Position numbers and translations under genes: made by a program
Origin: Nitrososphaerota archaeon
GTDB taxonomy: Archaea; Thermoproteota; Nitrososphaeria; Nitrososphaerales; Nitrosopumilaceae
Length of the DNA stretch: 64,000 nucleotides
NCBI GenBank assembly: GCA_028867755.1
Contig: JAGWFT010000001.1
Span: 676,727 to 740,726, forward strand
Reading direction: 5' to 3'
The notes under the pieces: model-generated
Seen by the model: only the letters and a program-made list of their open reading frames with translations
Database searches by the model: none
Told to the model about the DNA's origin: nothing
Shown here: one piece after another, positions 20,025 through 24,707 of the stretch
Position numbering within the stretch: the stretch's first letter is position 1
Layout of the letters: each line of letters opens with the position of its first letter

Positions 20025-20144
20025 TCCCACGCGCAGGATTCGAACTTGCGACTCTCCGGTTTCTGTAAGCCTGATAGGCTGATGACGGTCAGCCGAGAGC
20101 CAACCACTACAGCCGGATGCTCTACCAGGCTGAGCTAGCGTGGG
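20025..20144 (-). tRNA. tRNA-Tyr(GUA) with 46-nt intron at 37/38 (20061-20106)
   Basis: C1-G72 acceptor CCCACGC/GCGTGGG, stem TCCGG/CCGGA, BHB core CUGU/ACAG; mature length 74 nt. Confidence 0.95.
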
Positions 20145-20933: not shown

Positions 20934-21341
20934 ATGAGCAAGCCTTCTGAACTTGGTGCACTAAAAATTGGATCTTATATCTTGTTACCTGTTGATGCTA
21001 CAAGCCAGGAGCCATGCAAGATAGTGGAATACGATACCAGCAAACCAGGAAAGCACGGAGCTGCAAAGGCAAGAATTGTTGCAGTCGGTATATTTGACAA
21101 GAAAAAATACCCACACGTATCACCTGTGAGTGCACAGGTGCAGGTGCCGCTAATTGACAAGAGGGTAGGCTCTGTTATATCAAAAACTGAATCAGTAGTA
21201 CAGGTGATGGACTCTGAGACTTTTGAAGTCTTTGATGTGTATCAGATAGAAGAAGAAGTGGCAGACAAGGTTGCTCAGGGACAAGACGTTGAATACTGGA
21301 AAGTAATGGATAGAACTATTATAGTCCGAATCAAGAGCTAG
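20934..21341 (+). CDS. eif5a: Translation factor aIF5A
   Basis: SKPGKHGAAK hypusination loop. Confidence 0.97.
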   Translation: MSKPSELGALKIGSYILLPVDATSQEPCKIVEYDTSKPGKHGAAKARIVAVGIFDKKKYPHVSPVSAQVQVPLIDKRVGSVISKTESVVQVMDSETFEVFDVYQIEEEVADKVAQGQDVEYWKVMDRTIIVRIKS

Positions 21342-21345
21342 GTTC

Positions 21346-21419
21346 GGATGCTGATGATGACGAGAAAAGCCATCTGACGATTCATGCCATGATGAAGATT
21401 ATGAGTAATTGAAGCATCC
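21346..21419 (+). ncRNA. Box C/D guide sRNA
   Basis: Terminal stem GGATGCT/AGCATCC; C box ATGATGA 21354-21360; D' CTGA 21374-21377; C' ATGATGA 21389-21395; D TTGA 21409-21412; two 13-nt guides. Confidence 0.85.
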
Positions 21420-21472
21420 AAGGCTTTCTCTTTCTCGAATGAGTTATACGCGATGAATTGGTTATGTAATCT

Positions 21473-21586
21473 GTGAAAGGCATATGCCACGTGTGTCTTG
21501 CATCAAATGTGGAAGTTACTCTAAAGGATCATCTGTCCTTGTGTGAAAACTGCCTCAAAAAGGTAGCCGAACTAGAAAAAAATTAA
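21473..21586 (+). CDS. 37-aa CxxC...CxxC zinc-binding microprotein (not in ORF track)
   Basis: GTG start; MKGICHVCLASNVEVTLKDHLSLCENCLKKVAELEKN. Confidence 0.7.
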   Translation: MKGICHVCLASNVEVTLKDHLSLCENCLKKVAELEKN

Positions 21587-21612
21587 TTGAATGCATACAA
21601 TCAAACTGCAAA

Positions 21613-22296
21613 TTGATACTTGGATCGCTTTTCTCAGGAGGAAAAGATAGTGCATTTGCAGTCTATAAAGCAAGGTCTGAAGGCCATAACATATCATGTC
21701 TTGTTACAGTCTTTCCAAAATCTGAAGAAAGTCATCTATTGCACCATCCAAACATCAGACTGACTGCACTTCAGGCAAGAGCAATGAACATCCCACAAAT
21801 TACTATACCACTTGATTCTGATAACACCCGAGTAGAAGTCGACGAGATAAAAAATGCACTAAAGACTGCAAAGGAGAAATTTGGGATAGAGGGGGTGGTA
21901 CATGGTGGAATTCGTAGTGCATTTCAGAAAAACCACTTTGAAACAATTTGTCGTAGCTTGGACCTTAGAGTGATTGCCCCGCTCTGGAATGTAAATGAGG
22001 AAGCCTATTTGCATGAACTTGTACAATGTGGATTTGAGTTTGTCGTAACAAGTGTAACTGCACAGGGTCTTGATGATTCATGGCTTGGCAAGATCATAAC
22101 TTTACAAGATGTTGAAAAATTAATTTCAATATCGTCCAAGTTTGGATTCAATGCATCATTTGAAGGAGGGGAGGCTGAGACGTTTGTTGTTTCATGTCCT
22201 TTGTTTTCTGGGCACATCAGGATTGTAAAATCAAACAAGACATGGGATGGGTACAGAGGAAGGTTTGAAATAACCGAAGCTGTTTTGGAAGAATAA
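21613..22296 (+). CDS. dph6: Diphthine--ammonia ligase (Dph6)
   Basis: FSGGKDS PP-loop, EGGEAETFV. Confidence 0.9.
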   Translation: MILGSLFSGGKDSAFAVYKARSEGHNISCLVTVFPKSEESHLLHHPNIRLTALQARAMNIPQITIPLDSDNTRVEVDEIKNALKTAKEKFGIEGVVHGGIRSAFQKNHFETICRSLDLRVIAPLWNVNEEAYLHELVQCGFEFVVTSVTAQGLDDSWLGKIITLQDVEKLISISSKFGFNASFEGGEAETFVVSCPLFSGHIRIVKSNKTWDGYRGRFEITEAVLEE

Positions 22297-23621
22297 TGCT
22301 AGACAGCCTCAAGACTGGCCTCCGGGCTGCACTAAAAAAAATAGTCAATTCGTCTGCAATAGATGAAGCACTAATCAAGGAACTATCAAAAGACATTCAG
22401 AGAGCACTGCTACAATCTGATGTTAATGTAAAACTCGTATTTCAAATCACAAAAAATCTCGAAGAGCGCTCACTCAATGAGACTCCGCCTCCGGGACTAT
22501 CAAGAAAGGATCACATTGTAAAGATCTTGTATGATGAGCTTTCCAAACTGTTGGGCACAGAAAATGAATATGTTTTCCAGCCAGGAAAGATGAATCGTGT
22601 TCTAATGCTTGGAATACAGGGAAGTGGCAAGACTACGATAACATCGAAACTTGCAAAACATCTGACAAAGCAAGGGTACAGGGTGTGTGTTATTGGTGCA
22701 GATACATACAGGCCTGGGGCACTGACACAGCTCAAGACAATGTGTGAAAAGGCAAATGTCGAAGTATATGGAGAAGAGGGAAATAAGGACTCACCTGAGA
22801 TTGTAAAAAATGGACTGAAACATTTTGAGGGAAAGAACTTTGATATTATATTAATCGATACGGCAGGACGACATAAGGAAGAAAAGGATCTACTCGAAGA
22901 GATGACACGAATCAGCCAGGTTGCAAGTCCAGATTTGGCATTGCTTATCATTGATGGTACAATAGGCCAGCAATGCTATAATCAGGCAGAAGCATTTCAC
23001 AAGATAGTACCGGTCGGTGGTATTATCATAACAAAACTTGATTCAAGTGCAAAAGGTGGTGGAGCACTTGCTGCAGCAGCTGCTACTGGTGCTAGAATAA
23101 TGTACATAGGTACAGGTGAGCGAATTGATGACCTTGAAAAGTTTTCACCAACTAGATTTGTAGGAAGAATGCTTGGGATGGGTGATATTCAGGCTCTGCT
23201 TGACATGGCTGCAAGACTTGAGACCGAAGGAAATGAAGAGAGACTCAAGCGCATATCGCACGGCAAGATGAACATGGAAGATTTCTATTTTCAGATAGAA
23301 GAGGCAACAAAGGCGGGAGGCCTGAGAAGCATAATGGAGAACATGCCTGGAATCTCTGGGATGGTAAAAGAAGACCAGCTAGACCAACAGGAAGAACGTA
23401 TGGAAAGGTGGCGATATGTTATCCAGTCTATGACAAAAGAGGAAAAGGCAGATCCAGACTTGATAAATGCATCACGAGTAAAGCGAATTGCTAGGGGTTC
23501 TGGGTGGCCAGAACACGAGGTAAAGGAGTTACTCAAGGCTTACAAAAATTCAAAGACCATGATGAAAGCATCAAAGGGTCGCCAGATGCAGGGACTGTTG
23601 CGCAAGATGGGCCTTGGATAG
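22296..23621 (+). CDS. srp54: Signal recognition particle protein SRP54
   Basis: GIQGSGKTT, DTAGRH, TKLDSSAKGGG, Met-rich M domain. Confidence 0.97.
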   Translation: MLDSLKTGLRAALKKIVNSSAIDEALIKELSKDIQRALLQSDVNVKLVFQITKNLEERSLNETPPPGLSRKDHIVKILYDELSKLLGTENEYVFQPGKMNRVLMLGIQGSGKTTITSKLAKHLTKQGYRVCVIGADTYRPGALTQLKTMCEKANVEVYGEEGNKDSPEIVKNGLKHFEGKNFDIILIDTAGRHKEEKDLLEEMTRISQVASPDLALLIIDGTIGQQCYNQAEAFHKIVPVGGIIITKLDSSAKGGGALAAAAATGARIMYIGTGERIDDLEKFSPTRFVGRMLGMGDIQALLDMAARLETEGNEERLKRISHGKMNMEDFYFQIEEATKAGGLRSIMENMPGISGMVKEDQLDQQEERMERWRYVIQSMTKEEKADPDLINASRVKRIARGSGWPEHEVKELLKAYKNSKTMMKASKGRQMQGLLRKMGLG

Positions 23622-24460: not shown

Positions 24461-24483
24461 CATTGCACTATGTAATCATGTAT

Positions 24484-24548
24484 GGCTATGACATTAGCCT
24501 TGGAATGAGTTTCCTAAACCGCTCCTGAAAGGTGCTGATAATGTCTAC
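24484..24548 (+). ncRNA. Fluoride riboswitch (crcB motif) aptamer
   Basis: P1 GGCTA/TAGCC; pseudoknot GACAT (24490-24494)/ATGTC (24541-24545); AAACCGC linker; P2; 3' TGATA..CTAC; upstream of crcB. Confidence 0.85.
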
Positions 24549-24707
24549 CTAATGAAAATTAATAGGTAGATAAATGAACAAAAAAATCAAAAACAAAAAG
24601 GGAGCGGGAAAGTATCCTAGCGTATCCACTAATACTTGCAATGATCATCTTGATGATATTATGAATTTACAGATAGTAAATTTAAGTAACAATACGCCTA
24701 GGCAGAT

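Follow-up and report, generated by a model that had tools for sequence, protein, structure and literature searches.

The locus lies within a window of 64,000 nt (the whole stretch of DNA that was analysed), in which positions 20934-23621 of the plus strand hold a one-strand, translation-related run comprising aIF5A, a small RNA (the sRNA), a gene of the PF01902 diphthamide-synthase family (21613-22296) and an ORF for a putative SRP54-like GTPase (22296-23621), the last named from its sequence motifs. The ORF upstream of the sRNA is aIF5A by Pfam, wherein the N-terminal domain match listed in Table 1 is accompanied by an eIF-5a OB fold at 20.3 bits, below the cut-off. Its stop codon (TAG at 21339-21341) is followed 4 nt later by the start of the sRNA, the same placement as that given by the sequence-only reading of this stretch. 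Shortly after the sRNA, by about 20–30 nt, there is a conserved TAGTTATAC or GAGTTATAC motif that resembles the BRE/TATA elements of a separate promoter, and after it comes a conserved ORF of 20 codons bearing a CxxC motif, with its ATG at 21484 (both within 21440-21546 of the plus strand). Two other RNA features are found in the wider neighborhood, namely a tRNA-Tyr (GTA) gene with a 46-nt intron at 20025-20144 on the minus strand, which was recovered by ARAGORN in intron mode and by a genome-wide Rfam tRNA search while missing from the gathering-threshold Rfam scan of the window, and a fluoride riboswitch at 24475-24554 on the plus strand (Rfam RF01734, 38 bits).

Table 1. Coordinates of the sRNA, its parts and its immediate surroundings, numbered from the first letter of the window
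Feature	Position	Strand	Description
aIF5A gene, probable host transcript	20934..21341	+	ORF, 135 aa + stop; Pfam IF5A-like_N E 1.3e-17
TATA-like TATTATA	21317..21323	+	inside aIF5A end (Ile-Ile codons); centred ~26 nt upstream of sRNA 5' end
5' strand of terminal stem	21346..21352	+	GGATGCT; pairs perfectly with 21413-21419
3-nt k-turn bulge	G21353-A21354-T21355	+	at box C
Box C	21354..21360	+	ATGATGA
D' spacer	21361..21373	+	13 nt; guide core GAAAAGCC at 21364-21371
Box D'	21374..21377	+	CTGA
D'-C' linker	21378..21388	+	11 nt here; 2-8 nt in relatives
Box C'	21389..21395	+	ATGATGA
D spacer	21396..21408	+	13 nt; contains GATTATGAGT
Box D, non-canonical	21409..21412	+	TTGA
3' strand of terminal stem	21413..21419	+	AGCATCC; perfect 7-bp complement of 5' strand
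3' trailer	21420..21437	+	GGCTTTCTC (21422-21430) + TTTCTCG (21431-21437)

The interval 21346-21419 had been read as a box C/D guide RNA with its complete anatomy, i.e., the terminal stem, the boxes and two 13-nt spacers, and direct reading of the sequence recovers every one of these features. The non-canonical box D keeps the GA that forms the sheared pairs, and the U in place of C yields a G-U instead of a G-C pair. A strict pattern for such an arrangement (RTGATGA, 10–14 nt, YTGA, 2–16 nt, NTGATGA, 10–14 nt, YTGA) has a single match in the 1.64-Mb genome, at this very site, whereas 10 first-order Markov shuffles of that genome had none each, so the arrangement is more than chance would produce. 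A permissive Rfam scan of 400 nt returned 13 sub-threshold matches, all of them to C/D-box snoRNA/sRNA families and all lying over the sRNA interval; no family reached its gathering score there, the best match being SNORD96 with 19.8 bits against a threshold of 43, and the archaeal sR families scored 9–14 bits against thresholds of 41–54. Folding of the single sequence was uninformative (fold energy z = -1.16). A weak single-sequence fold energy is expected of a k-turn RNA.

When related genomes were searched at the DNA level, 15 of the 16 in the genus had the region, and the element could be recognised in each of these. A search with aIF5A yielded 80 Nitrosotalea-like loci (Ca. N. devanaterra among them, with the sRNA predicted at LN890280.1 461944-462009), in 79 of which the sRNA is present behind aIF5A at 3–7 nt from the stop. 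The 16 genus copies used in the alignments include two unpublished genomes (G010 and G011), and the conclusions are independent of both. A covariance model (R1) built from these 16 copies detects one copy in each of 23 sampled genomes of the family and has matches in 87 of 151 genomes of the order. Conservation of the boxes in relatives, named beforehand as a check, extends across the genus copies and the 79 Nitrosotalea-like loci, with only the first base of C' and of D departing from invariance: box C is ATGATGA throughout both sets, box D' is CTGA in 79/79 of the related loci, box C' keeps TGATGA behind its variable first base, and box D keeps its UGA while being TTGA in 67, GTGA in nine and ATGA in three loci. 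Distant families of the order carry the canonical CTGA as box D. The D' spacer is 13 nt long in 76 of the 79 relatives, while the D spacer measures 12 nt in 59, 13 nt in 13 and 11 nt in seven. In the alignment of the 16 genus copies the centres of the spacers are invariant and their ends variable, and only the D'-C' linker is free to differ in sequence as well as length. As read from the alignment, this pattern is the classic conservation signature of an sRNA.

The terminal stem is likewise under constraint. Across 29 order-level copies, 99% of its cells are paired and five of its seven pairs show compensatory two-sided changes, whereas controls with slid registers had none at -3 to +1 and +3 and two pairs at +2; moreover, the covariation score of the stem was reached by 0 of 500 shuffles. 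Even within the genus the outer pair may be G-C, A-U, U-A or G-U. The proteins with which such an RNA would operate are also encoded in the genome, with fibrillarin (E 1.5e-87) and Nop5 (E 1.7e-69) adjacent to each other on contig C35, and with two genes of the L7Ae family. Thus, conserved boxes, stem and guide cores, a covarying stem and the presence of the core proteins bear out the assignment of the element as a complete box C/D guide RNA, and on comparative sequence grounds the Nitrosotalea sRNA behind aIF5A is a well-supported addition to the known class of archaeal methylation-guide RNAs.

The sRNA had further been proposed to be processed from the aIF5A mRNA. Co-transcription with processing is indeed plausible: many genera preserve the 3–7 nt gap, as would suit an sRNA released from the aIF5A transcript, and archaeal sRNA genes that lie within 25 nt of the end of a gene frequently arise by processing of longer transcripts (PMC7994747). 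A promoter of its own is nevertheless possible for the sRNA. The TATTATA within the end of aIF5A lies at the distance of an archaeal TATA box and might be an internal promoter for the sRNA. It is conserved in the genus, but so are the Ile-Ile codons that it overlaps, and other genera lack it ahead of the sRNA. The most likely source of the sRNA would be the aIF5A transcript, or else a promoter within the end of that gene, with the precursor being trimmed back to a protein-protected body and the T-rich trailer acting as terminator. At the level of the order, a same-strand aIF5A is directly upstream of the sRNA in 20 of 29 loci, the linkage extending to distant families with only 47–59% aIF5A identity, and it offers a useful landmark for annotating the sRNA.

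The target of the D guide, which the sequence-only reading had left unnamed, emerges from a search of the guide complements against the genome, its tRNAs included, one of the checks it had suggested. When the spacer's own antisense is set aside, a genome scan for complements of the D spacer gives two sites with 12 Watson-Crick pairs plus one G:U and five sites with 12/13 Watson-Crick pairs. Among these five, one is in a stable RNA, a CAU tRNA with a 19-nt intron (G000:C35:191829-191923, minus strand), which is also by far the best match to the D guide among all tRNAs. The genome has three CAU tRNAs: the initiator (with A1, a GGG/CCC anticodon stem and its own intron), one with an Ile-like GGGCC acceptor that is presumably tRNA-Ile2, and the target itself (GCCGGGG...). 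With the other two being the initiator and the Ile-like tRNA, the target of the D guide is the elongator tRNA-Met, whose A31-C40 pair with the GATTATGAGT of the D spacer. In copies with a 12-nt spacer, the positions N+2 to N+11 pair with A31-C40 over exactly 10 bp and place the wobble C34 at N+5, a register that holds for the family consensus and for 59 of the 79 close relatives. This may be compared with the archaeal C/D RNP, which reads 10 bp at most and leaves guide position 1 unused (PMC7229835). The D guide core is invariant across the order, as are conserved both the target sequence in the elongator tRNA-Met and its unusual intron 5' of the anticodon. In archaea and vertebrates alike, the elongator tRNA-Met is known to carry Cm34, and C/D RNPs make this modification (PMC6601510; PMC7994747). 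We accordingly infer that the D guide targets C34 of this tRNA, with Cm34 as the predicted product.

The two tRNAs-Met offer some observations of their own. The elongator gene (L027:430-524, minus strand, the same locus as G000:C35:191829-191923, outside the window) has an intron of 18–19 nt 5' of the anticodon, conserved in position in several families of the order, and ARAGORN without its intron mode miscalls this gene. A junction at 30/31 is the most consistent, giving an A31-U39 pair in all families, whereas the ARAGORN placement gives U31. The initiator (G000:C24:456480-456600, minus strand, also outside the window) carries an intron at the canonical position in 24 of 30 sampled family genomes (loci L227-L256), and in 20 of those 24 the intron starts with UC. 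With this start, the precursor reads CUCAUAAUC, like the elongator, and can form nine Watson-Crick pairs plus one G-U with the D guide; the initiator precursor is thus possibly a second substrate of the D guide, or the likeness may be a coincidence of bulge-helix-bulge constraints.

In the genome at hand the register of the D guide departs from that of most relatives. With the 13-nt D spacer and a 12-bp pairing, G21403 faces C34 at N+6 from TTGA, an extra A being responsible, and the N+5 rule would therefore point to U33 rather than C34. The subclade to which this genome belongs has 1 nt between GAGT and TGA in seven loci, 2 nt in the majority and 3 nt in 13, including this one. A 12-nt spacer is typical of such RNAs, with other lengths allowed and extra bases capable of looping out at the 5' side of the spacer (PMC7229835); the extra base here is on the 3' side. 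The ruler measured from box D is established knowledge (PMC7229835), and together with the shifted G21403 and the junction that varies from 1 to 3 nt it lends itself to the reading that, in the copies with 13- or 11-nt spacers, the D guide has lost its function or has shifted to U33 (13 nt), A35 (11 nt) or nothing. Set against this, boxes and guide core are invariant in all 20 deviant copies even though the neighboring gene has only 84–89% DNA identity, which argues for continued selection. In addition, the length variation is confined to the already non-canonical first position of box D, wherefore the extra or missing base may belong to the k-turn and not to the guide. We know of no precedent for methylation of U33 or A35 in a tRNA, which also counts against a shifted target. 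We hence regard loss or shift of the function as unlikely and, given the invariant boxes and guide with variation at the first position of box D, favor Cm34 as the probable continuing function of the D guide in the deviant copies as well.

The D' guide points to a different RNA of the translation apparatus. Its core GAAAAGCC pairs with GGCUUUUC of the 23S rRNA, with N+5 (G21369) facing C2510 in the E. coli numbering. This genome's assembly is devoid of 16S and 23S rRNA, and the target was consequently read from relatives. The match amounts to 8 bp in the genus, where the target core is unchanged in three genomes, and to 10 bp in the sister genera, where the guide is conserved as GGAAAAGCCGT before CTGA and its 10-nt complement CGGCUUUUCC occurs in the 23S rRNA of 5/5 complete genomes, pairing with N+2 to N+11; the sister-genus 23S sites share their position in the segment after ACCUCGAUGU. 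The alignment to the E. coli 23S rRNA has no gaps over 2505-2560 and keeps A2451, U2552, G2553, U2585 and A2602 all in register, which identifies the partner of N+5 as C2510. The D' core is invariant in all copies against variable flanking spacer positions, and in family f15 the rRNA has CGGCUCUUCC and the guide GGAAGAGCCG, a compensatory change on both molecules. These observations point to C2510 in the peptidyl-transferase centre as the target and predict its methylation; the C of GGC opposite N+5 of D', which the sequence-only reading had singled out for methylation, is thus the right nucleotide, but it resides in the 23S rRNA.

Exact and mismatch-tolerant scans of both guides against the 16S-23S rRNA of G012, G013 and G008 gave nothing under a score that penalised mismatched guide ends, which ranks the 8-bp site below noise. 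Elsewhere, the D' guide had no match among all detected tRNAs. Seven genomic 10-mer matches to its complement, with about 3.5 expected by chance, are all inside or antisense to ORFs, and were rejected as targets, as at the orthologous sites the motif is either missing or antisense to a conserved chaperonin gene. A paralogous copy in a genome of family f4 (L119, G095:C18:193280-193346) keeps the D' guide of the 23S type but has an unrelated D spacer, suggesting that the two guides can recombine or evolve separately.

In Nitrosotalea, the pairing with the rRNA has become weaker. Each of the 79 Nitrosotalea-like copies has A or T at N+2 and A at N+11, neither of which matches the rRNA, and the guide:23S duplex has an energy of -12.5 kcal/mol here versus -17.6 and -19.9 in other genera. 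In an in vitro assay at 50 C, a substrate of 8 bp went unmethylated (PMC7229835). The 3' trailer, on the other hand, nearly repeats the sequence of the rRNA target core and complements the D' guide. GGCTTT(T)C is present within 14 nt of the 3' end of the sRNA in 75 of the 79 loci and is lacking in most other genera; the guide:trailer duplex reaches -13.4 kcal/mol here, close to the energy of the rRNA duplex, and about -6 in other genera. One may thus conceive of the D' guide of this genus as being kept for cis pairing with its own trailer and not for rRNA methylation, the alternative fold affecting 3'-end formation, processing or availability of the RNA. This would accommodate a core that stays invariant despite both mismatches to the rRNA, the GCCTT guides which with a AGGCTTTTCT trailer have 10 bp to the trailer and only 8 bp to the rRNA, and the predicted fold of the sRNA with its trailer, in which the guide:trailer helix replaces the terminal stem.

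However, the CTTTTC of the trailer resembles an archaeal oligo-T terminator, which the trailer probably contains, and the sRNA of other genera has T-runs after it as well; with such a T-run, six of the 8 complementary trailer bases need no further explanation, and common ancestry may account for the others. Nor was any clear two-sided covariation between guide and trailer seen in the genus copies or the Nitrosotalea-like loci, where only one-sided changes were noted, and it is on this account that a cis function is treated as a minority alternative. A candidate pattern of CGAG/CTAG versus CTCG/TTAG was rejected, since three of the 16 genomes depart from it and it runs into the probable promoter of the following gene. 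Further, the guide:trailer helix would compete with the k-turn stem needed by the RNP, and at 25–35 C a duplex of 8 bp, four of them G-C, may yet suffice. On balance, cis pairing in place of rRNA methylation appears improbable. A compound scenario, to which we attach a still slighter probability, is that in the acidophilic Nitrosotalea lineage the rRNA guide has been partly re-purposed, with two of the ten 23S pairs lost and a trailer complement of 8–10 nt gained; a guide-masking helix would then control the maturation or activity of the sRNP, or the sRNP would methylate the trailer to set the 3' end, and, in parallel, the D junction of 11, 12 or 13 nt would imply that the choice of site on tRNA-Met is not strictly bound to N+5.

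Two last alternatives can be treated briefly. The sequence-only reading had placed the D' target at UGGCUUUUCU in the 16S rRNA; this motif is absent from the 16S of three genus genomes, with no exact or near match in their 16S-23S operons and no 10-mer anywhere in their rRNA, and the conserved, covarying match sits in the 23S, making methylation of the 16S rRNA at that site extremely unlikely. That the boxes are chance words in an intergenic spacer or mRNA 3' end, without RNA function, would sit well with the sub-threshold Rfam scores and the modest z-score, but is a negligible prospect beside the lone genomic match absent from the shuffles, the order-wide conservation with its sRNA-typical pattern and the covariation in the stem and with the rRNA.

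The anatomy, the conservation, the covariation of the stem and of the guide with the rRNA, the unique complementarity to a tRNA and the genes for the proteins thus stand as observations behind the overall model, in which this is, very probably, a box C/D sRNA that acts with L7Ae, Nop5 and fibrillarin to guide 2'-O-methylation of two RNAs of translation. Once expressed, as we infer it to be, the sRNA would assemble with these three proteins into an RNP. The D guide, beside the terminal C/D k-turn, would pair with A31-C40 of the elongator tRNA-Met and present C34 for conversion to Cm34, and the D' guide would pair with the 23S rRNA in the peptidyl-transferase centre and present C2510. With the 8-bp D' duplex and C34 at N+6, the activity at either of the two predicted methylation sites may be reduced or shifted in this genome.

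The ammonia-oxidising archaea, which are mesophiles, are thought to carry few guide RNAs. Neither Rfam nor the literature searched yielded a C/D sRNA described for them, and this element, the only full-consensus C/D RNA in its genome, is the first candidate of its kind for the group and is conserved across the order. It leads to predictions that could be tested on maps of tRNA and rRNA modification in Nitrosopumilus, Nitrososphaera and Nitrosotalea. Moreover, the natural D junctions of 11, 12 and 13 nt, along with the D' duplexes of 8 versus 10 bp, offer a natural in vivo test of the strictness of the box-D ruler and of the required duplex length.

Among archaeal systems, the same D-guide layout is seen in the haloarchaeal sR-tMet of Haloferax volcanii and its relatives, an sRNA predicted to guide Cm34 of tRNA-Met (PMC2584109, additional file 5), for which Joardar et al. 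2011 is cited in PMC6601510. In function, sR-tMet and human SNORD97/SCARNA97 are the nearest known counterparts of the D guide. Its 12-nt D guide ends with UAUGAGUN, has box D directly after it and places C34 at N+5; the guide reads GCCCUAUGAGUG and then CCGA, so that box D is non-canonical in both RNAs, CCGA there and TTGA here (PMC2584109). Both also target an intron-containing elongator tRNA-Met. However, the haloarchaeal guide pairs with an intron 3' of the anticodon (the canonical 37/38 intron), whereas here the intron is on the 5' side (about 30/31) and the guide pairs with exon positions 31-40. The haloarchaeal D' guides differ between species and have no assigned target, unlike the conserved D' guide here that matches the 23S rRNA. 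The two RNAs share only the target-imposed UAUGAGU and the boxes, and the likeness is one of layout, not of established common descent. In Pyrococcus, C/D sRNAs aim at position 34 of tRNA-Met, tRNA-Leu and tRNA-Trp (Gaspin 2000, Omer 2000 and d'Orval 2001, as described in PMC7994747), and, compared by that description, have in common with the Nitrosotalea sRNA the targeting of the wobble nucleotide of specific tRNAs. The tRNA-targeting sRNAs of Pyrobaculum are described as using one guide, with the other having no target (Lui 2018, via PMC7994747), in contrast to the combination of a tRNA and an rRNA guide seen here.

Parallels also exist in eukaryotes for both predicted sites. In the large-subunit rRNA, methylations are recorded at Cm4456 of human 28S and Cm2880 of Arabidopsis 25S, with no archaeal methylation at the position equivalent to C2510, the P. 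abyssi column being empty (PMC11542601, table 2). C2510 lies 42 nt 5' of U2552, and Cm4456 and Cm2880 are equally far from Um4498 and Um2922, respectively (PMC11542601). This equal spacing marks C2510 as the equivalent nucleotide of the peptidyl-transferase centre. The eukaryotic guide for Cm4456, SNORD91, is in function the nearest known counterpart of the D' guide. A report that names both the snoRNA and the site has Cm4456 as normally fully modified (PMC8336889). For the tRNA, human SNORD97 and SCARNA97 pair with the anticodon stem-loop of the elongator tRNA-Met(CAT) and so guide its Cm34, just as is predicted here, but they are two cooperating RNAs, a eukaryotic intronic snoRNA/scaRNA system for which no rRNA guide is described in PMC6601510, while the sRNA here has one. 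SNORD97 is located in an intron of EIF4G2, a translation-factor gene (PMC6601510), and the Nitrosotalea sRNA behind aIF5A; this shared theme of a translation-factor host is probably a coincidence. Thus, what in eukaryotes is the work of separate snoRNAs, i.e., Cm34 of tRNA-Met by SNORD97/SCARNA97 on one hand and Cm4456 of the large-subunit rRNA on the other, would here be coupled in one RNA that joins predicted modifications for decoding and for peptide-bond formation.
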